From: an archaeon UBA543
GTDB lineage: Archaea > Undinarchaeota > Undinarchaeia > Undinarchaeales > UBA543
Direction of reading: 5' to 3'
DNA length: 59,598 bases
Assembly (NCBI GenBank): GCA_002502135.1
Contig: DAPM01000005.1
Span: forward strand, 1-59,598
The translations under genes were made by a program, and so were the position numbers. Shown here piece by piece: positions 9,072 to 34,662 of this stretch. Below the pieces are notes generated by a model. It was not told the DNA's origin. It ran no database searches and saw nothing but the letters and a program-made list of their open reading frames with translations. Numbering within the stretch: position 1 is the stretch's first letter; each line of letters begins with the position of its first letter.

Positions 9072-9118
9072 ATAATTTTATAAGCCCAGGCGACTACTGC
9101 TTATTATAGGTGAGAATA

Positions 9119-10980: not shown

Positions 10981-11012
10981 TAAACTCACAAAAGTTAACA
11001 AAAATTTATAAC
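10981..11012 (+). promoter_or_regulatory. conserved promoter module P1 (TAAACTCACAAAAGTTAA-N2-AAAATTTATAA)
   Basis: Near-identical to modules at 52951-52982 and 54652-54684 (minus strand). Its TATA element ends ~23 nt before the ATG at 11035. Confidence 0.55.
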
Positions 11013-12512: not shown

Positions 12513-15500
12513 TTAAAATGCACCAAGTTTCTTCTGTGCTTCAATTCCAAAAATAGAGTCAATTGACTTGCTGTACATTGTAATCTGCTGCGCTAGATAT
12601 GGGTTTATGTTGTACTTTTCAATCATGCGCTTTGAAACATCAAGGTATTTTTTGATAGTTCCTTCATGAACTGTCATTGTTAATTTGTTTCCACAATTAC
12701 TACAAACCCCAGAAAGGGGGGGTCTGCGATATTTTGTATTGCATTTGGTGCACCTGAGTTTCTGTTTCGCGAAGGTTCTTAGATTTCCTTTGATGTCAGG
12801 CAGAAAGTGGGACGACAGGATTCGCTCTGCAACGTCATCAGCATCAACAGCAAATGATTTTTCAGCCAAACCTAATTGTTTTTCAAGTTTGTCCAACATC
12901 TCTCCTTTTGAATATGTGTTCACAATTGGGCCGGCGTTGATGTCTTTTGTGTGATGTGTGAATGGCCAATTGAGAAGCGCATCTTCTTCTTCAAGAACAG
13001 ATTCAACTGTTTTCAATCCAATTGTGTTTGGATCTGCCCCTTGTTCTGTGGAATTATAAAAGTCTAAACCGTAACTATCAACAATGTCAACATCATAAAC
13101 CTCATCATCAAGTTCCAAAGCAGTTAAGCGGGTGCTGATAACAAGTGGAGCATCCATTCTTCCTCCACGCCTATCTGGTAAGAATGATTTGGAGAAATTG
13201 AGGAAAGAATCGAGCAAAAGGAGCACTGCATCCTCGTCACCATCACAATCTCTTCTTTTTGCATCGTGGAATGCTGGATGAGCATATCCCACTCGGGCTT
13301 TTGTGAAACCAATGAGTCTGCCGATGATACCAGTAGAGGTATGTGGCGCTAGACCAATTATCATTTTTCCAATTAAATCCTGTTTCTTCTTGCATTTGTA
13401 ATATGGTTTAAGTTTGTAATATTTTTCAAGTAACTCATCAATGAATTTGGAAGCTGCTAAAAGATAGATTGCAGCAGATTCCTCACCATAGTCAGATACA
13501 ACGACGTCTTGTGGTTTTAGTGGAAGAAGCTGATCTCCAGTTTCAAGTGGTTTTCCTTTCCAATCTTCAGTGTAGCCGAGTTTTCTGAGTTTTGCAACTG
13601 GTGCCTGAACTTCGTCAGGGGTAAAGTGAGTGAGTGGTGCGTCTGTGCTGTCAAATCTGATTGTGCCGTCCTTGAAAACATAAAGATTTTGTCGCGCCCG
13701 GAGAATTCCTTTTTCTAGGGCTTCCGGAGTTTTGCTTTTGCTAGACATCCCAAGAACTCCTTTAACTTTCTCAGGCGAAGGAACACCAAGTTTTGTAAGT
13801 GCAGAATCAAGATGAGTCTTGAAATTGATTGATTGTGTTTCGTAAGCAGTTGTTGATACCCCGCAGACTGGGCATTCTTCAGCAGGAATAGACCGACCAC
13901 AGCGTGGGCAGGCGGTTATGAGAATTGTTTTGCTGTTACAAGTGGAGCATCTTGGAAAAATACCTTGCGTTCCACAAGCTTCGCATTTGTATTTTGAGAT
14001 TTCGGGCGTGCTCGTCTGAGTAGTTTTGGCGATTTTAACAATATCACGGATACGTCCGCGTCGGCCCCCGGTTGGGAAAATTGCATTTGGTGGGGGGACC
14101 ATTTTTCTAGGTTTGGCTTTTTCAGGTCTGCCCATGCGTGCTCCAATATAAGTTGGAGCTCGGTTTTTGATTTCAACTGGACATAAATTATTGATTATCT
14201 TGATAACGTTTTTAGAGTGAAGGGTTTGTTTTTTCACGTTGCTAAGGTTCTTGGTTGGGAAATCTAAAGAGAAGAGAAGTGCTTTGAAATGCTCTGCGTC
14301 AAGAACTAGTTGATTTTCTGAAATCAGATGGAATACGCCCAAGTGTTCAAGTATTTTTTTTGTTTGCTTAGTGTTTTTTATGGTATTTTTCTCTGGATTA
14401 ATTGCTTCGGCTAGAGTTACAAGATCCTTAACAGTTATGCTGTTCCAGTAAAAAGTGTGGATTGGGTGAAAAGGAATATTATATTTTTTAGAGAGCTCAA
14501 CTGCTTTTTCAAAGCTTGGTGGTTTGGATTGGAATATTTCTGCATCTGTTTTGGATTTTTCAGCAAGCTGGAGACCCCACCATTCTTCACAGTAGGCTGA
14601 TTTTGCAAGAGTTTGGTTGTTTTCTAGAAAGTCGCCAGCAGAAATGAGTATATCACCAAGTTGGATTATTGCTTCTACTTCTTTCTCAAGTTCGACTGCT
14701 TGTTCGATTGTTGAGATTCTGAGAACTTCCCCAGAAGTTAGGCGAACTAGTGGACCTTCGATAGTGTCGCATGGTGTGATTATTGCGGCTTTGCCAGGCA
14801 TTTCCAATCGGACTTGGGTCCCAATTGCAATGAATTCTCCAAGGGTATGCATTGTTGCAGGGTTCATAGCTGCCGCAGCGTAACCGCTAGCTCGCGTTCT
14901 ACCATAGCGGAGACGGAAGCCACCCTGGCGAGAATAATGTGAGAAAACAGGTCGTCCTGCTGGAACTTCATTTAGGAATTTTTTGCTACCGCCACTTTCA
15001 ACAGCCGCTTCTGGTTCGTCAATAAGTGTGTCAAGCCAATCCCAGCGCCCGTCGGTGCCAGTTTGTTCTATTATTTCTTGGATATCCGAAGCGCCTTCGC
15101 CAGTCAAATCACCAACCCACTCAAAACCAGGAAGTTTGGTTTCAGAAATCTTCTCATGAACGTCTGGTGTGGCTGTTGACGCTTTTTTAACAAGCAAGCC
15201 CTCAAGCCAAGACCAATCCATACCAAAACTGTCTTGAATTGGCTTCATTCGCTTCCAGAGTTTTGGGGCTTTCTGAGCCACTCCCTCGGCTACAACCAAA
15301 CACATTCCACCACGCACTCTGTTGGATGGAACACGACCGAGATCTCGGAAGTTTGCAACTTCGTAGGTTTCTGTTGGCTCACCGTCAATGCAAACTGGAG
15401 TATTTCTGATTATTATTTTGACTTCCTCTTCAGACGGCATGTATTGTAAGTGAGTTCTTCTACCATACCATTGAATTTCCTCATAATACCGAGACACTTC

Positions 15501-16010
15501 TTGTTGAGTTGGTTGGTATGGTGCGAGATTCAAGACCTTACGGACATAATCTGCTATGATGATACATAGCGCTTCTGCAGTACCACCTGCTGCACGGATT
15601 GGTCCTGCGAAATAAACTGAAATGTATTGGGTGTTATCAGAATTCTTGTGAAGTTTGACTTTGGCAATTCCTTCTAGTGGTGCTGCCACAGAACCTTGGG
15701 TTAAGAAAGCGAGCCCTGCCCTTATTGCAATGTCAGCTGCTTTTTCGATGTCAGCTTCATTTTTTGCAACCTGTTCTGCAATTTTGAATGCAGCGGCAAC
15801 ATCACTCTCGGTTACTGCTGTTACTTTTTTTACAATATCTGCAAGCCCATCTAAACCAATAAGACCCTCAACCTTTTCTGAAAGATTTTTTGCAATATAA
15901 ATTTCTGGTTCTTCAGAAGGATCAACACCATTTTTCCTAGCCTGGCTAGCTAATTCAAACTCCTTTTTTGTTTCATTCTCCAGTTTTTTGAAATATTGTT
16001 CTGTGTTCAT
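12513..16010 (-). CDS. polC: DNA polymerase II (PolD) large subunit DP2
   Basis: About 1165 aa from the ATG at 16010 (the tracked start at 16076 is TTG). Has the DCDGDEDA catalytic signature and several CxxC zinc clusters. The length argues against inteins. Confidence 0.9.
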   Translation of the reverse strand: MNTEQYFKKLENETKKEFELASQARKNGVDPSEEPEIYIAKNLSEKVEGLIGLDGLADIVKKVTAVTESDVAAAFKIAEQVAKNEADIEKAADIAIRAGLAFLTQGSVAAPLEGIAKVKLHKNSDNTQYISVYFAGPIRAAGGTAEALCIIIADYVRKVLNLAPYQPTQQEVSRYYEEIQWYGRRTHLQYMPSEEEVKIIIRNTPVCIDGEPTETYEVANFRDLGRVPSNRVRGGMCLVVAEGVAQKAPKLWKRMKPIQDSFGMDWSWLEGLLVKKASTATPDVHEKISETKLPGFEWVGDLTGEGASDIQEIIEQTGTDGRWDWLDTLIDEPEAAVESGGSKKFLNEVPAGRPVFSHYSRQGGFRLRYGRTRASGYAAAAMNPATMHTLGEFIAIGTQVRLEMPGKAAIITPCDTIEGPLVRLTSGEVLRISTIEQAVELEKEVEAIIQLGDILISAGDFLENNQTLAKSAYCEEWWGLQLAEKSKTDAEIFQSKPPSFEKAVELSKKYNIPFHPIHTFYWNSITVKDLVTLAEAINPEKNTIKNTKQTKKILEHLGVFHLISENQLVLDAEHFKALLFSLDFPTKNLSNVKKQTLHSKNVIKIINNLCPVEIKNRAPTYIGARMGRPEKAKPRKMVPPPNAIFPTGGRRGRIRDIVKIAKTTQTSTPEISKYKCEACGTQGIFPRCSTCNSKTILITACPRCGRSIPAEECPVCGVSTTAYETQSINFKTHLDSALTKLGVPSPEKVKGVLGMSSKSKTPEALEKGILRARQNLYVFKDGTIRFDSTDAPLTHFTPDEVQAPVAKLRKLGYTEDWKGKPLETGDQLLPLKPQDVVVSDYGEESAAIYLLAASKFIDELLEKYYKLKPYYKCKKKQDLIGKMIIGLAPHTSTGIIGRLIGFTKARVGYAHPAFHDAKRRDCDGDEDAVLLLLDSFLNFSKSFLPDRRGGRMDAPLVISTRLTALELDDEVYDVDIVDSYGLDFYNSTEQGADPNTIGLKTVESVLEEEDALLNWPFTHHTKDINAGPIVNTYSKGEMLDKLEKQLGLAEKSFAVDADDVAERILSSHFLPDIKGNLRTFAKQKLRCTKCNTKYRRPPLSGVCSNCGNKLTMTVHEGTIKKYLDVSKRMIEKYNINPYLAQQITMYSKSIDSIFGIEAQKKLGAF

Positions 16011-16086
16011 TTTGAAGCGGACTTTATTTTGAAACGACGGAGGCCGCTTCAAAATTTGTTCAGTAACCAACTGCAAGGCCTGAACA

Positions 16087-17517
16087 TTATTGATCTGTGA
16101 AATTGAAATTAACTAAGTTGAGCTCTCTGGTTTGAAGGTTTAAGAGAGGTAGGATTGCAGGGGTTGGTTCATGTCCGCAGAGTTTTTGGAATGCAGTCTG
16201 CCCTTGCCAGGTTCCGCTGTTGATGATGTTGATTCCACGGTACATTGAATTTCCATTTGAGTGAACGTGTCCGGCGTGGAAAATGTCAGGAACAGTTCGA
16301 ATAACCATTTGATCCTGGCCTGAAGCAATGAGGCCGGTGTCATATGGTGGCGATAGGTGCCTGCGGATAAGAAGTGATTTCATTACAAGTTCTGGTTTAG
16401 TATATCCATCTTTGAGAGTTGGGTCAGCAGTAATCAGTGAATCCAGACTTACTCCGTGGTACATGAGAACATCCAGACCACCGTTGTCGTGTTCTGCGAT
16501 TTTTATTGTGGCGGGGTTGCCGACAAGTTCAATATTTTTGAGTTTGTAAAGTGGTTCAGCAACTTCTGGGTCAAGTGGTGGTTGAGGCTGGCCGAGCCGG
16601 ATAAAATCGTGATTGCCAGGAGAAAGGATTGTTTTGATGTGGTTTGGCACTTGGGAAAAGTAGTTCGCAGCTTCTTGGTATTGCTCTTCAATATTTGCAA
16701 TTGAAAGTTCTTCATCCTGCCGAGGATATATCCCAATTCCGTCAACAATGTCTCCTGCAAGGAAACAGTATTTGATTTTTGAAACCAATTCCTGCTGCTC
16801 CTTTCCACCAACTTCACCATTAAGCCAGGAAAGGAAGCGTTTGAACTCTTTTTCCATGAATTTTTTGCTCCCAATGTGGGTGTCAGATAGAAAAATCGCA
16901 TAAGATTCATGTTTCAGTTTTTTTGGTTCAGCCACAACCGGGACATCTGGCCACATTATCTCGTCAGCAAACATTATTCCGTCGCCCATTGTTCCGGCAA
17001 CACCGATAGCCTCGTCCATTACAAGTGTTTCTGCTTGTGGTCTTACCTCTTTACCAGAGGCAACTATTTTCACTGTACCGGTTGGATCTTCAAGTTCAAA
17101 AAGAATATTTCCTTTTGCAGTTATGCGTTTGTTGCAGACCAAACCAATTGTGCTCACTTTTTCTTTTACCATTTTGGTCATGCTATTAACTGATGATGGG
17201 TTGGTCAGACGACCTGAAAGAAGTTTTCTAAAGTGGGTGTATCGATTGTTGAAAAAAGTGGAAAGGTCTGAAACCCCTCGAATTGGCTTGTTTTTTTCAA
17301 AGTTTTCAAGTATTGAAAGTGTGGATTCAGTTGGTTTGTTAAGGTTATCTTCAATGTGTTTTGGGAGGATTGTGATAATATCTTGGTTTATGTTTTTTAG
17401 TAAAAGCTCTGCTGCTTCTAGTGGTTTTTCCTGTTCCAGAACAAGCCCCAGCGCATCTTTTGATATTTGAACTTTATTATTTAGAAAAAGTTGGAGGGTC
17501 TCGTTTTCGAGACTCAC
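16087..17517 (-). CDS. polB: DNA polymerase II (PolD) small subunit DP1 (exonuclease)
   Basis: 476 aa. Calcineurin-like phosphoesterase motifs LSDTHIGS, GDIVDG, GNHD and GHVH. The GTG start overlaps the orc1 stop (GTGA). Confidence 0.9.
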   Translation of the reverse strand: MSLENETLQLFLNNKVQISKDALGLVLEQEKPLEAAELLLKNINQDIITILPKHIEDNLNKPTESTLSILENFEKNKPIRGVSDLSTFFNNRYTHFRKLLSGRLTNPSSVNSMTKMVKEKVSTIGLVCNKRITAKGNILFELEDPTGTVKIVASGKEVRPQAETLVMDEAIGVAGTMGDGIMFADEIMWPDVPVVAEPKKLKHESYAIFLSDTHIGSKKFMEKEFKRFLSWLNGEVGGKEQQELVSKIKYCFLAGDIVDGIGIYPRQDEELSIANIEEQYQEAANYFSQVPNHIKTILSPGNHDFIRLGQPQPPLDPEVAEPLYKLKNIELVGNPATIKIAEHDNGGLDVLMYHGVSLDSLITADPTLKDGYTKPELVMKSLLIRRHLSPPYDTGLIASGQDQMVIRTVPDIFHAGHVHSNGNSMYRGINIINSGTWQGQTAFQKLCGHEPTPAILPLLNLQTRELNLVNFNFTDQ

Positions 17518-18707
17518 GACAACTCTCCTTTCAAAATATCACGGGACTTTTCAAGTGCTCTCCCAGTCATTGCAAGTTTGATTTTTCTAGTGCGGCCATA
17601 CCTTCCTCTTGAAATCACGCTTGCATTTATTACACCCAACATATCAAGCTCTGAAATTAAATCCGATACCCTGCGTTGGGTTAACGGAGCCAATCTGCTT
17701 TGTTTGCAGAAGGTTTGGTATACTTCATAAACATCCCCAGTTCCAATTTTTTCATTATTTAGATCTGAAAGGTAGATGATGCTGTGAAGAACTAGCTGAG
17801 ATTGACGGGGTTGGGTTTTTACCACTTGCACAACACGGTCAATATCGAGTTTTTGCTGAGCATCGTCAACATGGTGTAGCTGAATTGTTGTATCGCCTTT
17901 CCGTTCGCACAGCTCACACGCCACTCTGAGAAGATCTAGAGCCCTTCTTGCATCTCCGTGCTCCTGGGCAGCCAGTGCTGCGCATTTAGGGATGACATCT
18001 GCTGCTAGAATGTCTTTCTGTAGTGCTATTTCAGCACGTTGGGATAGAATGTCTCGGAGCTGGGTTGCATTGTATGGTGGAAAAACTAGTTCTTCTTCAG
18101 AAAGTGATGATTTTATTCTTGGATCAATGTTGTTGGTGAAGGATAAATCATTTGAGATTCCAACAATACTCACCCGACTATCTTTTAATTCTGTGTTTAT
18201 TCTGGACAGGTTGTAAAGCACATCTGTGTCAGAAAGAGAATCAATTTCATCCAAAATCAGAATGAAGATGCCTTTTTTCTTGTGCATTGTTTTAATGAAA
18301 AGTTTGTAAACTTCATCTGTTGGTAATCCAGTAGATGGCACTTCTTCACCAAATTGTGCTAAAAAGTGTGCGAACATTCGGTAGGCGGTGTTGATTTTCT
18401 CAAGTTTGCAGTTGAGATAGCAGGTTTTTAGTGCTGTTTTCTGAGCTGCAGCTTTTTTCTCTAATTCCTGACCAACATATCTGGTTACAAGCGTTTTTCC
18501 AGTGCCGGTTTTGCCGTAAATAAATACATTGCTGGGTTTATCCCCCCGCAGAGCCGAAACCAAGATTTGAGCAAGCTGATTTATCTGCTCTTCCCTATGT
18601 GGAACCTGATTTGGCGTGTATGTGTCCTGAAGCGCGTCTTTTCTAGTGAAATTCGGAGCTCGGACTAGGTAATCATCGAAAAGTTTATGCAACGTTTGCT
18701 GTGCCAT
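17514..18707 (-). CDS. orc1: Orc1/Cdc6 replication initiator
   Basis: 397 aa. Walker A GKTGTGKT, Walker B ILILDEID, a C-terminal winged-helix-like region, and an adjacent ORB-bearing AT-rich region. Confidence 0.9.
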   Translation of the reverse strand: MAQQTLHKLFDDYLVRAPNFTRKDALQDTYTPNQVPHREEQINQLAQILVSALRGDKPSNVFIYGKTGTGKTLVTRYVGQELEKKAAAQKTALKTCYLNCKLEKINTAYRMFAHFLAQFGEEVPSTGLPTDEVYKLFIKTMHKKKGIFILILDEIDSLSDTDVLYNLSRINTELKDSRVSIVGISNDLSFTNNIDPRIKSSLSEEELVFPPYNATQLRDILSQRAEIALQKDILAADVIPKCAALAAQEHGDARRALDLLRVACELCERKGDTTIQLHHVDDAQQKLDIDRVVQVVKTQPRQSQLVLHSIIYLSDLNNEKIGTGDVYEVYQTFCKQSRLAPLTQRRVSDLISELDMLGVINASVISRGRYGRTRKIKLAMTGRALEKSRDILKGELS

Positions 18708-18847: not shown

Positions 18848-18867
18848 CCCCTTGGTTTCGTATGGAG
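18848..18867 (-). promoter_or_regulatory. ORB-like box
   Basis: Minus strand reads CTCCATACGAAACCAAGGGG (TCCA..GAAA core plus G-string). Confidence 0.5.
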
Positions 18868-18906
18868 ATGTGGGGGAGATTTTTTGAGAGTTAAGTGGGG
18901 TTGGGT

Positions 18907-18927
18907 GTTCCAGATGAAGTAAAGGGG
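18907..18927 (+). promoter_or_regulatory. ORB-like box
   Basis: GTTCCAGATGAAGTAAAGGGG. Confidence 0.55.
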
Positions 18928-19056
18928 CCATTGTTGTTGGTTTTGGTGAGTTTTTATTGGATTATCTGAGCAAAATGATAAAATTAATTAAAATTATTTT
19001 CATAAAAAGAACTGTTGGTTCAGCAACTCAGAAAAATAATAGTGAAATCAATAGCA

Positions 19057-19076
19057 GTCCACAGGAAATAGAGGGG
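19057..19076 (+). promoter_or_regulatory. ORB-like box
   Basis: GTCCACAGGAAATAGAGGGG. Confidence 0.6.
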
Positions 19077-19086
19077 TTGTTTTCGG

Positions 19087-19107
19087 TTTCGAGATGAAAT
19101 GAAGGTG
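19087..19107 (+). promoter_or_regulatory. degenerate ORB-like box
   Basis: TTTCGAGATGAAATGAAGGTG, similar to the box at 18907. Confidence 0.35.
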
Positions 19108-19264
19108 TTGTTGGCGATTTTTGGTGAAAAACGGGCGATGAGTTGTGGTTTTATAGGAATATGAAAGAATAGTTTGGAAATTTTGGAAAACCCCTTAAAA
19201 ATATTGAGTTGTTGAGTCCCTTTTTCCTTTTGATGAACCCACCCCAGAATTAATGAGGTGATCA

Positions 19265-19382
19265 TTGAAAAAATTGAAAAATTTAGAAGAAAAAATATTA
19301 AAAAAAATAAAAATTTGGAAAAATAATGAAAAATTTGAAATAAAAATATTGAAAAAGTGTGTTAAAAAATTAAAAAAATTAA
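19265..19382. other. A-tract duplex-unwinding-element candidate
   Basis: A run made almost only of A/T, built from repeated (A/T)TTGAAAAA units, and flanked by ORB-like boxes. Confidence 0.6.
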
Positions 19383-19395
19383 GTTCCAGTGGAAG
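19383..19395 (+). promoter_or_regulatory. mini-ORB core
   Basis: GTTCCAGTGGAAG matches the classical TTCCAGTGGAA core. No G-string follows. Confidence 0.6.
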
Positions 19396-19488
19396 TTTTG
19401 GAAAAATTGGAATTTTCTTTATATATATAAATATTTTCCATATAGATAATAAATAATAAAGAAATTTTACACGAACGCTTCTTCTTGA

Positions 19489-19510
19489 TTCTCCAGGTGC
19501 AATTAAGGGG
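19489..19510 (+). promoter_or_regulatory. ORB-like box
   Basis: TTCTCCAGGTGCAATTAAGGGG. Confidence 0.45.
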
Positions 19511-19523
19511 TGGCAGGTAGTAA

Positions 19524-19545
19524 TTATTTACTATATAGTAAATAA
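19524..19545. repeat. 22-nt perfect palindrome, copy 1 of the TTTACTATATAGTAAA module
   Basis: TTATTTACTATATAGTAAATAA is its own reverse complement. Related copies sit at 20318-20348 and 29814-29844. Confidence 0.8.
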
Positions 19546-19596
19546 ATATAAAATATAAAAACAAATAATAAAAACCACATTTAATTAATTTTTTAA

Positions 19597-19758
19597 TTAT
19601 TTTCCCCTATAATTTGCATACCCACGCTCAATATATCTTTTAGTATTTTCCCAATATTTAAACCACAATTCAATTTCTCTTTTAATAACTCGAATCGGCA
19701 TTTCTGGTCCAACAACAGTTTTTTCTGCATCATCACTCAACTTTGCAAGGGCATTCAT
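19597..19758 (-). CDS. small hypothetical protein (53 aa)
   Basis: Not in the ORF track because it is under 60 aa. Its ATG overlaps the stop of the upstream ORF (ATGA at 19755-19758). Translation starts MNALAKLSDDAEKTVVGPEMPIRV. Confidence 0.4.
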   Translation of the reverse strand: MNALAKLSDDAEKTVVGPEMPIRVIKREIELWFKYWENTKRYIERGYANYRGK

Positions 19759-19961
19759 AAACCCTTAACATTATTTTTATTTATTCCATAACAAAAACCC
19801 AAAAACAAGTCCACACCACCAGGTTTTTCTAATATTTCCTGTCTTACTTCTAAATCATTTAATCGAAATTCAAATCGATCCTTTTTCTCTTTAACCCAAT
19901 TCATTATAAAAAGAAAAGCAGCTTTTTCTGCAGTAATTTCTTTGAATTTTTTCTCCTTCAT
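19755..19961 (-). CDS. small hypothetical protein (68 aa)
   Basis: ORF overlaps the upstream gene's stop by 4 nt, placing it in a three-gene coupled cassette. Confidence 0.45.
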   Translation of the reverse strand: MKEKKFKEITAEKAAFLFIMNWVKEKKDRFEFRLNDLEVRQEILEKPGGVDLFLGFCYGINKNNVKGL

Positions 19962-20317
19962 TTTTCTAACATCCCCCGATTCTCAAAACCGAGCTCCTTC
20001 ACCTTATTTTGCAAATCAGAATTTGCTTTGTGGCTAGCAGCTTGCCCAAGAGAATAATAAATATGTGTGCTCTCTCTGCCCCAGGTAAACCCACCTTTTT
20101 CTTGCTTAGCACCAATCTGCTTAAATTCGCCAAGATCTACACCGCGCTTGAAATGGTAGTACATTGAACGAATATCAACTGGCTCAAAAACTTGCTTGTA
20201 GATTTTGTAAACCTCATAACCATATGCAGAGCCAAGAGCATCAACAATTTGCTGCATTCGGTCTCTTATTACTGATTTTACTGGCCGACCACGACCTTTT
20301 TGAGCTTTTTTAGCCAT
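19958..20317 (-). CDS. AT-hook plus winged-helix (PadR-like) DNA-binding protein, putative
   Basis: Start set at the ATG at 20317 (MAKKAQKGRGRPVKS, where GRGRP is AT-hook-like). GYEVYKIYKQVF and SMYYHFKRGVDLGEF look like a winged helix. Promoter module lies immediately upstream. Confidence 0.55.
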   Translation of the reverse strand: MAKKAQKGRGRPVKSVIRDRMQQIVDALGSAYGYEVYKIYKQVFEPVDIRSMYYHFKRGVDLGEFKQIGAKQEKGGFTWGRESTHIYYSLGQAASHKANSDLQNKVKELGFENRGMLEK

Positions 20318-28734: not shown

Positions 28735-29697
28735 TTACTTCTCAAGATCGCCAATATCACTTTCCACCATCTTCTTGAACTGTTCCACTTCTTCTGCAAG
28801 CTCTTCTCCTCCCTCTTTCAGTTTCCCAATAATAACATCAGCAACCCCAATAAACCCAGAGCAGTCACATTTCACCATATCTACAGGACGCACAGTACAG
28901 AATTTTATATTGAATAATTCATCTGGTCCTGACATACCACTTTCATCATACCCTTCTAAAGTCAGAATCGACAGAATATAAGCGCTATCTGCAGTCTCAG
29001 CAATTGAACTGCTCTTGATTTTGTAGCCTGGATAGTCTTCAAGTAGGAAAGTCAGCTTCTCTGGCGACTTGTATTGAGCAACACTCTCTTCAAACAATTC
29101 ATCAGCACTCAGCATCTGCATCACACTTCGTACATGCAGGCAATCTGGTGCTTCAGTTTTGAAAACAGTTCCGAAAATCGGCAGATCAAGGCCCGCTTTC
29201 GTAGGTTTTGGAGTCAAAACACCAACTACTGAAACTACTATAATCGTTATCAAGAGCACTGTTCCGATAATTTTCTTATTATCGTGCATGAATTGCTGAA
29301 TTTTGGTCTTGCCTTTTGCCCTCTGGTCATGCCGTTGCTTGTAAAAGAAAAAGTAGAAACTGATCATAGTTGAAATCGAGAGTAGGATTCCTGTTACAAA
29401 ACTCTTCAGCGGAGCCAAAATGAAGCCGGGTAGGTCCCAGAAACTTGGTAAAAACTGGCCTAACTGCAGGGACAGGAAGAAAATACAGCTTCCGAGGCAG
29501 ATTCTGGCTACCATTCGGTAGCTCCATGAGATTTTGGGCAGTCCATGCCTTGCTAGCGAGCCGTAAAATAGTATGAGTGAGAGCGCACCTAGCAAAGTAC
29601 CCCACGTTATGAGCATTGGTAAGTACTGAATCAGTTTGGTCAGGTCAGGCATATGTTCGATTATGCTGGTTTGGTTTAAATAATTATGTTTTTCCAC
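28735..29697 (-). CDS. membrane protein, hypothetical
   Basis: 320 aa with about 5 TM helices and a soluble C-domain. The tracked start is GTG. An ATG at 29652 lies ~25 nt downstream of a TATA-like box and may be the true start. Confidence 0.5.
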   Translation of the reverse strand: MEKHNYLNQTSIIEHMPDLTKLIQYLPMLITWGTLLGALSLILFYGSLARHGLPKISWSYRMVARICLGSCIFFLSLQLGQFLPSFWDLPGFILAPLKSFVTGILLSISTMISFYFFFYKQRHDQRAKGKTKIQQFMHDNKKIIGTVLLITIIVVSVVGVLTPKPTKAGLDLPIFGTVFKTEAPDCLHVRSVMQMLSADELFEESVAQYKSPEKLTFLLEDYPGYKIKSSSIAETADSAYILSILTLEGYDESGMSGPDELFNIKFCTVRPVDMVKCDCSGFIGVADVIIGKLKEGGEELAEEVEQFKKMVESDIGDLEK

Positions 29698-29710
29698 TAA
29701 AAATACCCTT

Positions 29711-29728
29711 GTCTATACACCTGTATAG
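29711..29728. repeat. left terminal inverted repeat of the island
   Basis: GTCTATACACCTGTATAG is the exact reverse complement of 33594-33611. Confidence 0.85.
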
Positions 29729-29763
29729 TGGTGGGTAGATGGGTAGATTGTAGATAGGTAGAC
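29729..29763. repeat. degenerate heptamer array (GGTAGAT units)
   Basis: TGGTGGGTAGATGGGTAGATTGTAGATAGGTAGAC. The 12-mer GGTAGATTGTAG recurs inverted at 30595-30606. Confidence 0.65.
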
Positions 29764-29813
29764 AAAAATTAAACCACTTCTACTGCTACTGGTTTTCACT
29801 CGCTTTTCTAATT

Positions 29814-29844
29814 TCTATTAATTATTATCTATATAGTAAATAAT
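29814..29844 (+). promoter_or_regulatory. promoter/operator module, copy 3 (no ORF downstream)
   Basis: TCTATTAATTATTATCTATATAGTAAATAAT is 26/31 identical to the minus-strand reading of 20318-20348. It is followed by TAGG rather than ATG. Confidence 0.45.
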
Positions 29845-30028
29845 TAGGTTATTTTTAATCCAACCCATAAGGCACACTCACAAAATCATTCTCAAAAATC
29901 CTACACCTTTCCACTTCTCACAAACCGATTTTTCACACACAATCCCACATCCCTCACACACAAAACCCTCACAAATCCCCCGAAACACGTATAAATCCCA
30001 AGATCCTACACATAAACACTCACAAACT

Positions 30029-30122
30029 GCGCCGGTAGTTTAGCCTGGTATGACCTAAGCTTCCCAAGCCTCTCAAAAGGCGAAAACAGCTTATGACCCG
30101 AGTTCGAATCTCGGCCGGCGCA
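30029..30122 (+). tRNA. tRNA-Gly (anticodon CCC) with an intron of about 21 nt in the anticodon loop
   Basis: Acceptor GCGCCGG/CCGGCGC, T-arm CCGAG-TTCGAAT-CTCGG, anticodon stem TAAGC...GCTTA with loop start TTCCCA. About 21 extra nt (~30067-30087) lie at the canonical 37/38 position. Confidence 0.8.
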
Positions 30123-30181
30123 TTTTTTCTTTCTCACAATACCTCTAAATACTGACAAATGTCCATATTCTAACTCTCCCA

Positions 30182-30254
30182 AACTCCGTCTCGCCACGGA
30201 GGATGGCGGTAGGGCGTTCGTGCTTCGCACGAAGCCCTGTTTTGAAGTTGGTTC
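30182..30254 (+). ncRNA. candidate structured RNA element, copy B (unknown class)
   Basis: Same 37-nt 5' part as copy A. The hairpin at 30212-30238 has a UUCG tetraloop and the same bulged G, and the same CTGTTTTGAA tail follows. TATA-like CTCTAAATA lies ~30 nt upstream. Confidence 0.45.
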
Positions 30255-30447
30255 GGTCTGTTTAAGTGACTATTGTCAGTTATTCTAACTCTCACAAACG
30301 AAATATTCACTTAATTTTCGGTAGTGCGCTTGCTATCGGTTTTGATATATCAGAGTTTTCATATATCCCTGCACATAAAACCTATATCCTTAACAATATA
30401 AATTCTATCTCTCACACCCAAAAACCCAATACCTGACAAATGTCATG

Positions 30448-30614
30448 TAGTGGGTAGTTGGTGGTTGGTAGTAGGTAGAATTATGATATTTTGCACCAAA
30501 ACACCCCAAAACTAGGAAATTTATCAAAAATCAGCCAAAACCACCATATCAGTGACAAATGTCACTTATTCGCACCTTCTCTACTCTCCACCCACTACAA
30601 TCTACCTTCCACCC
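30448..30614. repeat. inverted pair of GGTAG-type heptamer arrays
   Basis: Array at 30448-30480 (TAGTGGGTAGTTGGTGGTTGGTAGTAGGTAGAA) and an approximate inverted partner at 30576-30614. Confidence 0.55.
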
Positions 30615-30890
30615 AATAAAATTCCAGTTTTAGTAATTTATCCAGCAAAACATCAATTTCAATACTCCTAAAACCACTAGCATGAAATATGTCAGGTCGC
30701 AAAACCAATAGCAACAAATATGTCATCTGACATATCTTACATATAAATCTGACATATGTACTGTTTGCCCTACATCAAAAACCGCTAGCCTGCGACTAAA
30801 ACCGATAGCAGTGAAATGTCAGATATGTAAGCTTACATATCTTACACGTTTTTCGAAAGGTTTATAAGGGAGAAAGCACTACCCACCGAC

Positions 30891-31445
30891 ATGAAACTGT
30901 TCTCATTTTTCAAGAAAAAACCCAAAAATGTGTCCGATATGTCAGGTGACACATTACCTGACACATCAGATGTATCAGATGACACATCTGACATATCAGA
31001 GGTGACAAATGTCCCTGTTTCACGCGAAGATCCACTTTTCACTATTTCAAGACAACTAACTCAAGTTCAATACGAACTCAAAGACATCAAACCACTTATT
31101 GAATCTAGCACACAAAGCCTTCGCGAAGACCACTACAGATTACTCGAAGAACAAGCAAAAACAGTTGAAGAATACAAAAAACACCTTAATTACAAGAAAG
31201 AAAACCTGAAGCAAGCAAAACAACGAGTAGAAACTGAATTAAAACACATAGACGTCGACAGCAAAATCTTAGATCACCTTTCAATAGCCCCAAAACGCAC
31301 AGTAGAAATTTCTGAAGAATTAAAAATTAGCAGAGGCTATGCTGCAGAACGTGTGAAAGCATTACTTGAAGCAGGCCAAATCGACCGCTTCAAACAAGGT
31401 AAAAAAGCTTATTACAAAATCCCAAAACCAGAAGCAAGCAACTAA
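30891..31445 (+). CDS. hypothetical DNA-binding protein (iteron-encoded Ser/Asp repeat, coiled coil, C-terminal winged-helix-like)
   Basis: 184 aa. TATA-like TTTATAAGG ends ~20 nt before the ATG. N-terminus MKLFSFFKKK, and C-terminus ISRGYAAERVKALLEAGQIDRFKQGKKAYYKI looks like a wHTH. Confidence 0.55.
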   Translation: MKLFSFFKKKPKNVSDMSGDTLPDTSDVSDDTSDISEVTNVPVSREDPLFTISRQLTQVQYELKDIKPLIESSTQSLREDHYRLLEEQAKTVEEYKKHLNYKKENLKQAKQRVETELKHIDVDSKILDHLSIAPKRTVEISEELKISRGYAAERVKALLEAGQIDRFKQGKKAYYKIPKPEASN

Positions 31446-31446
31446 A

Positions 31447-31557
31447 CTACTTCTTCTTTTGTCTCTTGGCCTTAGCCTTCCTTTTCCTAATTTTCTTCTT
31501 TGTAGTGCGCCATCTCTCACTACCTTTCTTTTTAAAATTCCGTGGTTTACTCTTCAT
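31447..31557 (-). CDS. 36-aa extremely basic peptide, putative
   Basis: MKSKPRNFKKKGSERWRTTKKKIRKRKAKAKRQKKK. TTATAAA box lies ~25-31 nt upstream of the ATG. Absent from the ORF track because it is under 60 aa. Confidence 0.4.
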   Translation of the reverse strand: MKSKPRNFKKKGSERWRTTKKKIRKRKAKAKRQKKK

Positions 31558-31666
31558 TACTCGGTCTTGATGCCACTGGTTGTTTATAAGGTTTCCCCCC
31601 TATTCTCAATAACCGAAAAAATAACTCTCACAAAAATATTTAAACTACAACCAACATCTTCTTTTT

Positions 31667-31876
31667 ATGGTTAAAGATAGACAAATTCATACATATCCCG
31701 ATCTTAAAAAAAGATTAGCAAAAGCACGAAAACATCTCGATGCTATCGATGAAAAAATAAAAGCTGACAACGATCCTGCAGCAATCAAAGAGCTAGCTCG
31801 TACAGTCGATTATCTTGGTTTTGTTTTGGATGACGTCTTAGCTGTGTTATATCAAAGAAGACTCCTCAAGGAATAA
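31667..31876 (+). CDS. small hypothetical protein (69 aa)
   Basis: The ATG is preceded by CTCACAAAA-ATATTTAAA (word plus TATA) at about -25. Confidence 0.5.
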   Translation: MVKDRQIHTYPDLKKRLAKARKHLDAIDEKIKADNDPAAIKELARTVDYLGFVLDDVLAVLYQRRLLKE

Positions 31877-31878
31877 AC

Positions 31879-32472
31879 TTAGTCGCTTCCTCTCGCTTTT
31901 GCAGTCTGAACCAACGAATTATACTCACTAGCAACATGCTCCCAAAACCTACTAAACTGAGTACTAGGTCTCACAATTTTTTTGTAGTATTTCTGCTTTG
32001 ATCTCTCGTGTGTAAATGCCTCACGCTCCAATCTTACCATCCCAACACGTCTCAATCTCGGCAGGATAACGTTGTAAAACGTGGCTTTTGAGAACTCTTT
32101 TTCCCGAATAAACGCACCAATATCATCTCCACGCAATACCTGCTTCTCAAACAACAAACCCATGAATTCTATCGCCATCAGGTGATATTTTTGCTGATAT
32201 TTCGGTGGAAAAACCAATTCCAAAATCTGATTTAGCTCAACTCTCACATTCTTATGATATGCCCAATTGTCTCGCAGCCTCTTGATATCGTCAAACCAAA
32301 TCGACTCTTTGCTTGGCACGCCCCGGCTCGCAGGTCCTCCAACATTCGAACTTGGTTTTTTAGAATTATCTCGCTCAACAACTTGCACAACCTCGGATGC
32401 ATACTCAATATCATTATGGTGTTTATTATCCATAATCTCGGGTATGACATCTTGGTATTTAAAACTTACCAT
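31879..32472 (-). CDS. hypothetical protein with C-terminal winged-helix-like segment
   Basis: 197 aa. FSKATFYNVILPRLRRVGMVRLER resembles a wHTH recognition region. Its promoter lies within the 43-nt repeat. Confidence 0.5.
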   Translation of the reverse strand: MVSFKYQDVIPEIMDNKHHNDIEYASEVVQVVERDNSKKPSSNVGGPASRGVPSKESIWFDDIKRLRDNWAYHKNVRVELNQILELVFPPKYQQKYHLMAIEFMGLLFEKQVLRGDDIGAFIREKEFSKATFYNVILPRLRRVGMVRLEREAFTHERSKQKYYKKIVRPSTQFSRFWEHVASEYNSLVQTAKARGSD

Positions 32473-32495
32473 TATAGTAAACTCTGACGCAAACT

Positions 32496-32538
32496 ACTTT
32501 ATCAAAAAACTGGTTCCGGTCTACCATAACGGTGTGAT
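32496..32538. repeat. 43-nt direct repeat, copy 1 (TATA plus TACCA-N3-xGGTx dyad)
   Basis: 34/43 identical to 32598-32640 by my hand alignment. On the minus strand it supplies TTTTTGATAAAG about 30 nt upstream of the ATG at 32472. Confidence 0.65.
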
Positions 32539-32597
32539 ATCACTTTTTTGGTTGACAGGGGCTAGGGTATGCGATTAAACAATACTTTTTTCTGAAA

Positions 32598-32640
32598 ACT
32601 TTATCAAAAACATGATTTCAGTCTACCATATTGGTATGAT
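32598..32640. repeat. 43-nt direct repeat, copy 2
   Basis: Contains the perfect dyad TACCATATTGGTA (32624-32636). Confidence 0.65.
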
Positions 32641-32681
32641 TAGCACCAATTAAAAGTTATAATAATCAAGTTCTCCGAAAC

Positions 32682-32696
32682 ATACCACAATGGTAT
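32682..32696. promoter_or_regulatory. dyad ATACCA-N3-TGGTAT
   Basis: Perfect 6-nt arms. This is the third member of the ACCA-N3-TGGT series. Confidence 0.5.
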
Positions 32697-32698
32697 AT

Positions 32699-33025
32699 TT
32701 ACTCAGTTTCTGGTGTAGTTGCTTCAGTTCTTTGCGCCAAGCTTCTAAAAAGCAAATTCTCAAAATCTGTAGCTAAATTATGCCCATTTTCTGTTAAACT
32801 GATGTATTTTACACGTCCATCCTTGTTAAATTCAACAAGTCCGTGTTCCTGCATCTTTTGAAGCAGTTTTACAGTGTGAGCGTACGTGCAATCAATCTTT
32901 TTAGCTAAATTGCTTGCATAAGCGTCTCGATCAGCCTGTTTGATGTGAACTAGTAGTCTAGCTGGTTTTTTTCTAAGAAACATCTCTTCTAATTGAATAT
33001 TTGTTGCCATAATTGTAACCCCCAT
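32699..33025 (-). CDS. winged-helix transcriptional regulator (ArsR/MarR-like), putative
   Basis: 108 aa. ASNLAKKIDCTYAHTVKLLQKMQEHGLVEFNKDGRVKYISLTENG is a classical wHTH layout. An alternative ATG at 33010 fits the TATA spacing better. Confidence 0.65.
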   Translation of the reverse strand: MGVTIMATNIQLEEMFLRKKPARLLVHIKQADRDAYASNLAKKIDCTYAHTVKLLQKMQEHGLVEFNKDGRVKYISLTENGHNLATDFENLLFRSLAQRTEATTPETE

Positions 33026-33028
33026 ACG

Positions 33029-33056
33029 AAACCAGATAAATTGTGAGATCTGGTTT
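33029..33056. promoter_or_regulatory. inverted repeat over the wHTH gene promoter
   Basis: AAACCAGAT-N10-ATCTGGTTT with perfect 9-nt arms. The spacer contains ATTGTGAG and overlaps the TATA-like region. Confidence 0.55.
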
Positions 33057-33458
33057 TTGTATCTTCCAAAACAATGTTTTGAACGACAGGTATTCTAAAG
33101 GTAGTATTAGTATATAATCTTTTTCACTTTACATTTGTCACTACTTTCTGAAAACCGATAGCAGTCGCCACGTTCAATTTATCACTCAAAAGTTCGTTTG
33201 TGAGACTTAGCTATTAGCTTTTAGCTTTTGGCTCTTAGCTAACAACTAAAAGCCAATTGCCAACAGCTAATTTGTGAGACCGAAAAAACAACTCTAACAA
33301 AAAATTTAGCAGAGTTGCGGTTTTGTGAGTGAAAAATCAATTTGTGAGAGTTTTGAGTTAGCTATTCTTGTTCTGATCTAGTTGAATGGGCGTGTAGAGT
33401 GTAGTAAATTAGTGAATTAGATTCTGAAAAATTTTTGTGAGACTTAAATATTTGTGAA
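33040..33458 (-). repeat. array of CTCACAAA words in inverted orientation (at least 6 copies)
   Basis: The plus strand reads (T/A)TTGTGAG at 33040, 33197, 33271, 33322, 33341 and 33435, with a variant at 33451. Confidence 0.7.
33207..33241. repeat. five in-phase heptamers TTAGCTN
   Basis: TTAGCTA TTAGCTT TTAGCTT TTGGCTC TTAGCTA. An approximate inverted partner follows at 33246-33275. Confidence 0.75.
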
Positions 33459-33468
33459 ATTTATCCAA

Positions 33469-33501
33469 GGGGCATAGGAGCTAGGGAGCTAAGGGGCATG
33501 G
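33469..33501. repeat. degenerate G-rich 7-8-mer array
   Basis: GGGGCATAGGAGCTAGGGAGCTAAGGGGCATGG. An approximate inverted partner sits at 33541-33580. Confidence 0.55.
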
Positions 33502-33593
33502 AAAAATAATAATGAAAAACGTTATGTAGAGAACCATTTTCTTAGCCCCATTGCCCCCTACTTGCCTAGCCCCCTTAACCAAAATAACCTATT

Positions 33594-33611
33594 CTATACA
33601 GGTGTATAGAC
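33594..33611. repeat. right terminal inverted repeat of the island
   Basis: CTATACAGGTGTATAGAC is the exact reverse complement of 29711-29728. Confidence 0.85.
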
Positions 33612-33615
33612 GACC

Positions 33616-34662
33616 CTATTTTCTTAACTCTTCAAGTATAGATTCCTTAGCTTCAGTTATCCTGACAAATTCTTTTATCTTCGCCTCATAATCTTCATCT
33701 GTATGGGAATAATCAGTCGCTCCTCTATCTATTGCAATTTTGTAAAACGCCTTCTTTACTTCTCTGGCGCTTGCTCCTGGTTCCAACCCAAGAAGCTCAT
33801 ATCTTTCATCTGTTTCTGCCCACTTAACTGTTGGGACTTCCTTTTCCCACTCAGGTTCCTCAACAATCCTCGGCCCTTTCTTCGGCGTCTTCACTTCACC
33901 AACAACCTTAGGTCCTTTCCTCTCCAACTTTTTCTCAATCTCTTCCAGCATTTTATTTAATTCATCTGCAAGATTCGGGTTTGCCTTAATGGCTTTTTCA
34001 CAACATTCTTTGGCCTTCGCATACTCCTTTCCCTCATAATACACCTCCGCAGCCTTCTTGTAAGCGTTTCCAATAAAAACATGGCTCTCTATCTCGACTT
34101 TCGCTTTCTTCCCACCCATTCTAATAATATTCTGCAACCTTTCTATCTCTCCCTCATATTTCTTTTTAACATTTTTATCCAGTTTGATTGCTGTCTCATA
34201 ACGAAGCAATGCAGTGTCGTATTCTCCCAAATTTTCAAAAAATTCAGCAGCGAGAACATAACGTATACTTTGGAGTTGCGGTTCTCCTTCACAAGCTGCA
34301 ATCGCAAGTCTCACGTATTTTACTCCCTTTCTGAAAAAATATTTTTTCTTCCAATCTGATGGCGCCAACTTCCCACGATCAAGATATGTTTTAGCTATCG
34401 CATACAATGCTGCCATTGATTTACTATCAATTTTTAATGCTTCCACAAAACAGTTCTTTGCCTCTTTGAATCGCCCAGCTTTCATATGTGCGTTTCCATC
34501 TTTTATGTAGCCGAGCCCCCTCATTTTCCTACGCGCCGCTTTCCCAACCCTTGCTCTTTTTTTCCTAAAGAAATTACCTTTCATATCACTTACATGTCCT
34601 AACTCCTTTTTATACATATCTCCCAATAACCTTAAAAGCCACCACCCACTACCTCCCTTCAT
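33616..34662 (-). CDS. TPR-repeat protein with degenerate C-terminal J-like domain
   Basis: 348 aa with several TPR-like repeats. The C-terminus YELLGLEPGASAREVKKAFYKIAI resembles a J-domain helix but lacks HPD. The true start is probably internal. Confidence 0.55.
   Translation of the reverse strand: MKGGSGWWLLRLLGDMYKKELGHVSDMKGNFFRKKRARVGKAARRKMRGLGYIKDGNAHMKAGRFKEAKNCFVEALKIDSKSMAALYAIAKTYLDRGKLAPSDWKKKYFFRKGVKYVRLAIAACEGEPQLQSIRYVLAAEFFENLGEYDTALLRYETAIKLDKNVKKKYEGEIERLQNIIRMGGKKAKVEIESHVFIGNAYKKAAEVYYEGKEYAKAKECCEKAIKANPNLADELNKMLEEIEKKLERKGPKVVGEVKTPKKGPRIVEEPEWEKEVPTVKWAETDERYELLGLEPGASAREVKKAFYKIAIDRGATDYSHTDEDYEAKIKEFVRITEAKESILEELRK

Follow-up and report, generated by a model that had tools for sequence, protein, structure and literature searches.

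Auxiliary operators can lie inside coding sequences, as do lac O2 in lacZ and gal OI in galE, where they act through DNA looping. In archaea, the autoregulated winged-helix repressors Lrs14, Ss-LrpB, and MDR1 have multiple operator boxes at their own promoters. Bacillus subtilis carries one parS site inside spo0J, and AspA of pNOB8, a winged helix–turn–helix (wHTH) protein, binds a palindrome and spreads. In gene O of Stx phages and lambda, two extra iterons give 13 extra residues in the O protein (PMC7466680). Here, we describe an array of palindromic sites on a 59,598-nt contig of the marine DPANN archaeon UBA543 (Undinarchaeota; DAPM01000005.1), the whole of which we call the window (59.6 kb). 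The array lies between an intron-containing tRNA-Gly(CCC) and an open reading frame (ORF) of 184 codons, ORF184, in a gene-poor 3.9-kb stretch, and it reaches ~125 nt into ORF184 itself. Its sites are enriched, are conserved as DNA across the start codon, and co-vary between lineages upstream of and inside the ORF. On balance, we lean toward reading the array as conserved cis-regulatory DNA, an operator region belonging to a chromosomal cluster of three genes for winged-helix proteins, and not as an origin of replication.

Architecture of the Site Array

The sequence TGACAAATGTC occurs in four exact copies in the window, all on the + strand within 30153-31013 and none elsewhere; with one mismatch allowed, there are six copies versus 1.9 expected. 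The spaced pair TGWCA-NN-TGWCA is found four times in the window, always within 30434-30951 (shuffled sequences: mean 0.27, maximum 2), and the best 900-nt frame (30151-31050) holds 17 TGWCA words (mean for the window, 1.84; 99th percentile, 11). All five + strand copies of AAAACCnnTAGC also fall within the array locus. The features of this region are as follows.

30028-30123, + strand: intron-containing tRNA-Gly(CCC), the left edge of the array's noncoding stretch (ARAGORN; Rfam tRNA, 48.3 bits)
30153-30164, + strand: distal dyad TGACAAATGTCC, in a lineage-specific insert (30124-30266) absent from L015
30267-30278, + strand: variant dyad TGACTATTGTCA
30286-30343, + strand: conserved module of TAACTCTCACAAACGAA (30286-30302) and GCTTGCTATCGGTTTT (30328-30343); its blocks are invariant in the three-species alignment and belong to inverted repeats of the window
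30394-30447, + strand: TATA-like CAATATAAATT, then CTCTCACAC, about 17 nt, and the dyad TGACAAATGTCATG; conserved in the window, L007, L015, L009, L016, and L010
30551-30566, + strand: best dyad, AGTGACAAATGTCACT, a 16-nt palindrome but for its AA center; conserved in L015, L007, L013, and L010
30669-30696, + strand: composite unit 1, TAAAACCACTAGCATGAAATATGTCAGG
30700-30735, + strand: composite unit 2 (30700-30725), ending in O1
30718-30735, + strand: O1, ATATGTCATCTGACATAT, that is, ATATGTCA-TC-TGACATAT with perfect 8-nt arms; present in L007, L013, and L015
30750-30759, + strand: half-site TGACATATGT, invariant in the three-species alignment
30777-30790, + strand: truncated composite unit 3, a fourth unit beyond the three recognized initially
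30797-30822, + strand: composite unit 4, TAAAACCGATAGCAGTGAAATGTCAG
30822-30841, no strand assigned: O2, a perfect 20-nt palindrome, GATATGTAAGCTTACATATC, ~35 bp upstream of the TATA box; invariant in the window, L007, and L015
30855-30869, + strand: putative transcription factor B recognition element (BRE) and TATA box of ORF184, GAAAGGTTTATAAGG; an invariant block in the alignment, assigned from consensus and conservation
30891-31445, + strand: ORF184, with an N-terminal MKLFSFFKKK motif, a disordered Ser/Asp tail to about residue 45, a long helix, and a C-terminal winged helix
30937-30954, no strand assigned: O3, in ORF184 (+46), ATATGTCAGGTGACACAT, read as D-M-S-G-D-T
30959-31000, + strand: 21-nt tandem repeat in two copies of seven codons each (PDTSDVS and DDTSDIS)
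30969-30988: O4, the palindrome GATGTATCAGATGACACATC, inside the tandem repeat
31001-31014, + strand: in-ORF copy of the distal dyad, GGTGACAAATGTCC, read as V-T-N-V, with the TGACAAATGTCC dyad at 31003; kept in L007, L013, L014, and L015

The dyads, variants, and half-sites listed in the initial annotation of this DNA are all present, with offsets of at most one base. The dyad with 8-nt arms, which had been placed at 30717-30734, sits one base higher, and the reported 14-nt palindrome is real but proved to be part of the longer 20-mer O2. An inverted copy had been noted near the far end of the locus; it lies at 33130-33142 (TACATTTGTCACT) and has one mismatch to the dyad.

Several of these elements recur within the array. 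The dyad TGACAAATGTCA is found at 30434-30445 and again at 30553-30564, and three composite units (30669-30696, 30700-30725, and 30797-30822) follow the pattern AAAACC..TAGC..ATGTCA. O1, O2 (within its 20-mer), and O3 have a common form, the 18-bp palindrome ATATGTMA-NN-TKACAYAT. In the window, O1 and O2 are 105 bp apart and O2 and O3 are 114 bp apart; in both L007 and L013, O1 and O2 are separated by 126 bp, exceeding the window spacing by 21 bp, or two helical turns. The module at 30286-30343 is an inverted paralogue of one upstream of ORF108 (33151-33204), a small gene farther along the same stretch. The segment 30394-30447 may be a distal promoter whose start site is close to the dyad.

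The noncoding stretch has further structure. The lineage-specific insert after the tRNA contains a duplicate of the dyad plus ATTCTAACTCTC and a GC-rich double hairpin (30186-30243) that includes GGGCGTTCGTGC-TTCG-CACGAAGCCC; the fold is only mildly better than that of shuffled sequences (z = -1.8), and there is no Rfam match. G/T-rich GTAGTKG repeats (30447-30478) are able to pair with CTACCTTCCACC-type repeats (30578-30606), giving a long imperfect hairpin that encloses the 30553 dyad (z = -3.1). The CTACCTTCCACC repeats are also seen in L007, both at the corresponding site and upstream of its ORF108.

The promoter and start of ORF184 appear to be bracketed by predicted sites, as O2 lies upstream of the putative BRE/TATA and O3, O4, and the 31003 dyad lie after the start codon. 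The TATA box precedes the first ATG by 25-34 nt, and the distance is the same in all lineages (e.g., L009, L010, L016, and L020), indicating that the ORF184 mRNA is probably leaderless or near-leaderless. Among the window, L007, and L015, the segment 30810-30945, which spans O2, the putative BRE/TATA, the ATG, and the first 18 codons, is nearly invariant. The MKLFSFFKKK start is in frame in every lineage, including two contigs for which gene callers had picked a later ATG.

An internal start at the GTG at 31002, which would leave the repeats untranslated, was considered and rejected. The spacing between the conserved TATA box and the first ATG is fixed, the frame remains open through indels in all lineages, and the N-terminal M-x-L-(F/I/L)-x-(F/I)-F-x-K-K is conserved as protein with synonymous differences. 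A sigma-70 promoter scan, which is not applicable to archaea, gave hits at the level of shuffled sequence, and the terminator matches were the palindromes themselves.

DNA-Level Selection Inside the Reading Frame

The translation of 30933-31013, SDMSGDTLPDTSDVSDDTSDISEVTNV, is the low-complexity Ser/Asp segment that the initial annotation had seen encoded by the array, and we compared this region across 14 related Undinarchaeota loci. In the alignment of the window, L007, and L015, the motifs form invariant islands in a spacer rich in substitutions and indels. At identical residues, codon identity between the window and each of its four close relatives is 0.83-0.90 in the tail versus 0.56-0.60 in the rest of the gene (P = 5e-4 to 0.05), except that for L014, one of the four, tail codon identity is 0.75 (P = 0.053). 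Across five close sequences, 26 of the 30 bases in TGWCA words are invariant, and 10 of 12 third positions (83%), compared with 29 of 63 tail bases outside the words and 24% of third positions in the rest of the gene (P = 2e-4).

The words are also more numerous than the peptide requires. Synonymous codon resampling gave 1.0-1.6 words expected from peptide and codon usage, compared with 5-7 observed, and YGTCA/TGACR is enriched in all eight lineages with a Ser/Asp tail (synonymous-codon permutation, P from below 2e-4 to 0.019). A first resampling with the narrow words TGACA/TGTCA showed no enrichment in L010 and L016; these lineages use CGTCA/TGACG-type words and are enriched when the broader core is used. 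The position after Asp is occupied by T, K, I, or M, whose codons all begin with A, and the preceding codon always has T as its last base, so that TGACA is preserved while the peptide changes. The Ser/Asp-rich character of the tail likewise follows from the palindrome, since ATGTCA-NN-TGACA reads (M/V)-S-x-D-(T/K/I). Homologues that kept the peptide and lost the words would have spoken against an overlap of the two; the opposite is seen, with TGACA/TGTCA kept while residues change. The earlier suggestion that the array continues past the start codon is thus borne out by word conservation across homologues, as a DNA-level and presumably protein-binding array.

The position of the in-ORF site outlasts its sequence. 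A palindrome lies at +37 to +64 in seven of the eight Ser/Asp-tail lineages; the exception, L013, has the site GTGTCAGGTGACA at about +60, which has shorter arms and was not listed by the palindrome finder. In the window clade, the palindrome has the form ATATGTCA-NN-TGACAyAT. In L009 and L016, it is CGCATGACATGTCATGCG and CGCATGACGCGTCATGCG, respectively, both perfect 18-mers, and in L010 it is AAGCGTCGCCTGACGCGT. The lineage-specific words of the in-ORF site are repeated in each case upstream of the TATA box, with ATGCGACGCAT in L009, GTCATGCGACA in L016, and CGTCGCCTGACA in L010. For the window clade, L009, and L016, 8-23 8-mers are common to the ORF tail and the upstream DNA within the same motif group versus 0-7 across groups, where chance would give ~0.6.

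More distant Undinarchaeota carry a basic K/R tail in place of Ser/Asp, indicating that the acidic tail is derived. Several basic-tail lineages have their own upstream word once or twice in the ORF: GTGTCAAC is found twice in L053 and once in L020, beside CTGTCAAG. In L054, an identical 26-nt composite unit lies at -105 and at +40.

ORF184 and Candidate Binders

The AlphaFold model of ORF184 has disordered residues 1-42 (predicted local distance difference test, pLDDT, below 50), one 85-residue helix (48-132), and a C-terminal winged helix (137-176), in line with the low-complexity segment and the winged helix proposed initially. Foldseek matched the winged helix to ArsR/SmtB, MarR, and AspA folds, with CzrA at E = 6.6e-4 over ~70 aligned residues. 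AspA, which is also among the ORF108 matches, stands at the same level as dozens of repressors. The protein falls below the Pfam cutoffs for HTH_24 (20.0 vs 21.9), TrmB (19.8 vs 25.6), and HTH_5 (19.5 vs 22) and the NCBIfam cutoff for HTH_metalloreg (22.8 vs 55), and its matches to Lrs14 and Sta1 are weak. As no family threshold was passed, we do not place ORF184 in ArsR, MarR, or TrmB.

Two further genes of the cluster and the module upstream of one of them bear on the question of what binds the array.

31879-32472, - strand: ORF197, a highly conserved DPANN protein with a winged-helix core; candidate reader of sequence-invariant elements
32699-33025, - strand: ORF108, a small MarR/HTH_27-type winged-helix protein, 86% identical in L016; candidate reader of the invariant TGACAAATGTCA dyad
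33130-33204, - strand: ORF108 upstream module, read on the - strand as CTCACAAACGAA, GCGACTGCTATCGGTTTT, the dyad AGTGACAAATGTA, and the TATA-like GATTATATAC

The presumed recognition helix of ORF184 is SRGYAAER in the window clade and SRQY(A/V)S(N/D)R in L009, L010, and L016. This difference between motif groups favors the ORF184 product as the binder, and autoregulation by ORF184 is most likely on the sequence comparison. The TGACAAATGTCA dyad, CTCACAAACGA, and AAAACCGATAGCA are invariant and recur as a module upstream of ORF108; their probable readers are ORF108 and/or ORF197, which are far more strongly conserved than ORF184.

Site geometry, the leaderless mRNA, and the ORF184 fold lead us to propose cooperative binding by a winged-helix protein. 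A dimer would bind sites on either side of the ORF184 promoter, with cooperativity arising by looping or by spreading across the promoter, and the bound protein would repress or tune ORF184 transcription. The binder would be ORF184 itself, through its long coiled-coil helix and C-terminal winged helix, and the downstream operators would be written into the codons of its disordered N-terminal tail. Both the identity of the binder and repression are inferred here from sequence. The arrangement is that of an operator array in that dimer-sized palindromes of 18-20 bp surround the putative promoter of a transcription factor gene (O2 ~35 bp upstream of the TATA box, O3 at +46), and in that the sites are conserved footprints in orthologous loci that co-vary with the regulator, qualitatively so as regards the recognition helix. 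The boldest possibility, which we regard as unlikely, is that ORF184 binds the array including its own 5' coding sequence and that the array doubles as an origin-proximal archaeal centromere or membrane tether, with a new coiled-coil winged-helix protein as its reader.

Several observations weigh against the operator reading. At least 12 half-sites over 860 bp is a large number for a simple operator, and the O2–O3 distance of 114 bp corresponds to ~10.9 helical turns, not cleanly in phase. The distal dyads, 330-740 bp away from the start of ORF184, may serve a separate function, such as an unannotated transcript. The promoter that the sites would bracket is itself assigned from BRE/TATA consensus and conservation. 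Non-marine relatives with basic tails have zero to three in-ORF core words, which makes the extended in-ORF array clade-specific. Within-lineage co-variation is not uniform, as the L010 tail has 17-18 8-mers in common with the upstream DNA of the window clade versus five with its own, and L014, a 1-kb contig closely related to L007, keeps its in-ORF words though its upstream DNA differs. Finally, the co-variation of recognition helix and motif is qualitative and rests on very few independent lineages.

The L014 contig is unusual in its first 200 nt, where O1, O2, and the composite units have given way to an unrelated sequence (an ORF end); its TATA box and in-ORF words are intact. It represents either a rearranged strain or an assembly chimera.

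Gene Neighborhood

The gene set of the window is that of an ordinary chromosome, with both PolD subunits, Orc1/Cdc6, a Hef-type helicase-nuclease, SerRS, a topoisomerase, Cdc48, RadA, and pyrimidine genes. The genome records closest to the locus are Candidatus Undinarchaeota metagenome-assembled genomes, and an identical ORF184 is found on contigs from TARA Oceans and other marine metagenomes. The 3.9-kb stretch holds four small genes, ORF184 (+), ORF69 (+), ORF197 (-), and ORF108 (-). The order of a PRC-barrel gene, a membrane protein gene, tRNA-Gly, the four small genes, and an M42 peptidase gene recurs in L007 and L015, where ORF184 is 82-83% identical, and in L016 (44%). The tRNA-Gly/ORF184/ORF69/ORF197/ORF108 order is kept across Undinarchaeota genomes down to 40-44% protein identity, with synteny also in the L051-L062 loci. 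At the distance of L016, the flanking membrane protein is 40% identical and ORF184 44%, versus 83% for ORF197 and 86% for ORF108, indicating that the latter two proteins are unusually strongly constrained.

Members of the ORF197 family are present in 191 Undinarchaeota and Micrarchaeota genomes. An ORF184-like gene adjoins the ORF197-family gene in 11 of the 11 recovered Undinarchaeota loci and in none of the Micrarchaeota loci, and a metagenome scan for the ORF184 family added just three further loci, so the ORF184 family appears to be rare. ORF197 has no sequence match in Pfam, NCBIfam, or PDB, and SKATFYN..LPRL..VGM is invariant across the family. It may be an uncharacterized core DPANN DNA-binding protein or transcription factor.

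The locus has been rearranged in at least one more distant lineage. In L020 (3480-7760, compared with 29700-33600 of the window), the ORF108-ORF197...ORF184 block is inverted relative to flanking genes that match those of the window, the PRC-barrel and membrane protein genes at one end and the M42 peptidase gene at the other; tRNA-Gly is on the opposite strand, and the locus carries two inserted membrane-protein genes. Candidate substrates for recombination are the two inverted copies of the regulatory module (30286-30343 and 33151-33204). The introns of tRNA-Gly(CCC) vary in number and position by lineage (window, 30028-30123; L007, about 9100-9260; L020, 3835-3995 on the - strand). The L007 gene, with an insert in the T-arm region, and the L020 gene, with long inserts, were both missed by ARAGORN and were identified by eye.

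Other elements lie around the cluster. The ORF108/ORF197 spacer (32473-32698) has palindromic boxes of the form ACCAyAwyGGT at 32523-32533, 32625-32635, and 32684-32694; these boxes sit inside a 43-nt direct repeat (32496 and 32598) and make up a differing operator set upstream of ORF197. The spacer also holds the 26-nt element TAATCGCATACCCTAGCCCCTGTCAA (- strand, 32552-32577), which is identical at 22 of 26 positions in the window, L007, L015, and L016 and contains the half-site CTGTCAAC. A palindromic run of TTAGCTA repeats occupies 33207-33270. CTCACA(A) motifs are mirrored about the four-gene cluster, with eight on the + strand (29877-30417) and six on the - strand (33042-33441), each set facing its downstream gene. 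The 17-mer AAACTCACAAAAGTTAA is found just upstream of the TATA-like boxes of three unrelated genes and may therefore be a general promoter-associated element of the organism. Elements of this kind also lie at 10985, 52972, and 54674.

Alternative Readings

The initial annotation likened the array to plasmid or viral origin iterons or to centromere repeats and placed it in an island. If the sites were iterons of a replication origin, whether one brought in by an integrated virus or plasmid or an additional one of the chromosome, initiator sites would enter the initiator's own gene. Repeated short sites beside DNA-binding protein genes that enter one of them are indeed the layout of lambda O/ori-lambda (PMC7466680), and the locus adjoins a tRNA gene. 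The sites are, however, dyads and palindromes irregularly spaced by 63-168 bp rather than tandem direct iterons of about 17-22 bp, ORF197 belongs to a core DPANN family, and the locus is vertically inherited and syntenic, as described above. None of the four ORFs matched a Rep, primase, helicase, or integrase in Pfam, NCBIfam, or PHROGs. The AlphaFold core of ORF197 (residues 54-194) bears a weak resemblance to the extended winged helix of TFIIE-alpha/TFE and to AbfR2, a protein of the Lrs14 type (E = 3e-3 to 9e-3), with RepE54 only at E = 1.8. We found no att-like repeat of the tRNA 3' end, no match of 30124-31060 by BLAST against plasmids and phages, and no ORF184 relative in IMG/VR; an exact IMG/VR scan for ATATGTCANNTGACATAT returned 28 single scattered matches on unrelated contigs, which we judged uninformative. 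An AT-rich unwinding element is absent from 30-33 kb (GC 0.37-0.40), and cumulative GC skew turns at 18-19 kb, not 30-31 kb. It peaks there at a region of origin recognition boxes (ORBs) and replication genes:

12513-16076, - strand: polD large subunit
16087-17517, - strand: polD small subunit
17514-18707, - strand: cdc6

ORB and mini-ORB motifs (core TTCCAGTGGAAA-like) by an AT-rich stretch and orc1/cdc6 are found here and not at the array. The ORB-like boxes GTTCCAGATGAAG (18907) and GTTCCAGTGGAAG (19383), together with further G-rich variants, flank the AT-rich stretch, which lies directly upstream of cdc6-polD, and 19001-20000 is 28.6% GC. By these sequence signatures, the canonical archaeal oriC is at about 18.9-19.5 kb (18850-19460), 11 kb from the array, and the array should therefore not be annotated as an origin or mobile-element feature. 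With the locus syntenic and vertical, an origin recognizable elsewhere, and Rep, integrase, att repeat, and unwinding region all missing from the searches above, the island and origin-iteron reading fails; we consider it very improbable and essentially refuted.

A centromere-like or chromosome-organizing site, at which ORF184 would bind near oriC, spread or bridge, and tether or segregate the chromosome, would fit the large number of sites along ~860 bp, as fewer would do for a simple operator. The recognizable oriC is 11 kb away, ORF184 combines a long coiled-coil helix and a winged helix with the amphipathic N-terminal MKLFSFFKKK motif, and the centromere-binding AspA is among its fold matches, albeit level with dozens of repressors. 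This explanation is nonetheless doubtful: no ParA/SegA/MinD-type NTPase was found in the ORFs scanned across the window, the sites are limited to the neighborhood of one gene, and the strongest positionally conserved ones bracket a promoter at fixed distances, as regulation predicts. Constraint on RNA could equally suppress synonymous change at the 5' end of a gene, through hairpins at the 5' end of a leaderless ORF184 mRNA or in a long 5' untranslated region or noncoding RNA starting from the 30394 TATA-like box, with effects on translation, stability, or an RNA-binding protein. The region 30425-30615 does fold better than shuffled sequences (z = -3.1), and the TATA-like box upstream of the 30434 dyad is conserved. 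An RNA element is improbable, however, as words in both orientations lie upstream of the proximal TATA box, outside a leaderless mRNA; several palindromes are perfect through the center (AAGCTT in O2, and the L009 and L016 18-mers), leaving no hairpin loop, as is typical of DNA dyad symmetry; and the inter-motif spacer is unconserved and full of indels. Rfam scans, covering the whole window at the gathering threshold and 29600-33700 at an E-value threshold, returned tRNAs only, plus sub-threshold miRNA-like noise on the palindromes, with no family match for such an element. Neutral repeat expansion, by slippage or duplication in a tolerant disordered linker whose likeness to the upstream words is due to descent or chance, would fit the 21-nt tandem repeat inside the tail, the tail's disorder, and its freedom of composition, which is basic in other Undinarchaeota. 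It is quite improbable given that the words are kept across species while synonymous sites elsewhere are close to saturated, that the in-ORF palindrome holds its position despite sequence turnover, that upstream and in-ORF words change jointly between motif groups, and that two lineages have perfect 18-nt palindromes in coding DNA.

Implications

To our knowledge, nothing is known of gene regulation in uncultivated DPANN archaea, and we know of no segregation system in the Undinarchaeota; the literature on this phylum that we found concerns phylogeny only. The locus offers defined sites and three small candidate proteins for in vitro work. A predicted protein-binding array and a reading frame occupy the same bases for ~100 nt, with comparative support, and selection on the DNA appears to override selection on the protein, as words stay while residues swap among T, K, I, and M. 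Low-complexity protein tails could arise in this way as by-products of cis-regulatory repeats.

If ORF184 binds an array that takes in its own 5' coding sequence, the disordered tail of each protein in the family would spell out that protein's DNA specificity, and every operator repeat gained or lost would alter regulation and protein together. Such a far-reaching reading, which we regard as unlikely, would account for the change to an acidic Ser/Asp tail in the marine clade, where other Undinarchaeota have a basic K/R tail. The L009 or L016 orthologue would be expected to prefer CGCATGAC(AT/GC)GTCATGCG over ATATGTCAnnTGACATAT, and the window protein the reverse. Judging from the sequence comparisons, the extent of the in-ORF array in a regulator's own gene appears to be new, as does the evidence that such an array sets the amino acid makeup of a protein tail, here one that went from basic to acidic.

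Comparison with Known Systems

In layout, the closest analogue appears to be the origin of lambda and Stx phages in gene O. There, too, the gene of a DNA-binding protein has an array of sites within its coding sequence, in the part that encodes a linker with no role in DNA binding. The lambda sites, however, are origin iterons beside an AT-rich region, and O is the replication initiator of a mobile genome, whereas the window locus lacks an initiator, an unwinding element, and a mobile context, its sites bracket a putative promoter, and its array begins upstream of the gene rather than in mid-gene.

The parS site in spo0J/parB is similar in that a segregation-protein site lies within its own gene near the origin, and AspA is among the ORF184 fold matches. 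The window locus differs from parS and from AspA/pNOB8 in having no ParA/SegA-type ATPase and in the fixed geometry of its sites relative to the putative promoter.

In presumed function, looped in-gene auxiliary operators such as lac O2 and the autoregulated wHTH genes of archaea seem closest. In lac and gal, too, palindromic operators about 100 bp apart flank a promoter, and an ORF contains the downstream operator. In those systems, however, this ORF is a structural gene, and the regulator has no repeat that an operator shapes, whereas here four to six predicted sites would lie in the 5' coding region of the presumed regulator and dictate the composition of its tail. Lrs14, Ss-LrpB, and MDR1 resemble ORF184 as small archaeal wHTH proteins with several regularly spaced palindromic boxes about their own BRE/TATA. 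ORF184 would differ from them in its domain order of tail, 85-residue helix, and C-terminal wHTH, and in an array that continues to about +125 within the ORF.

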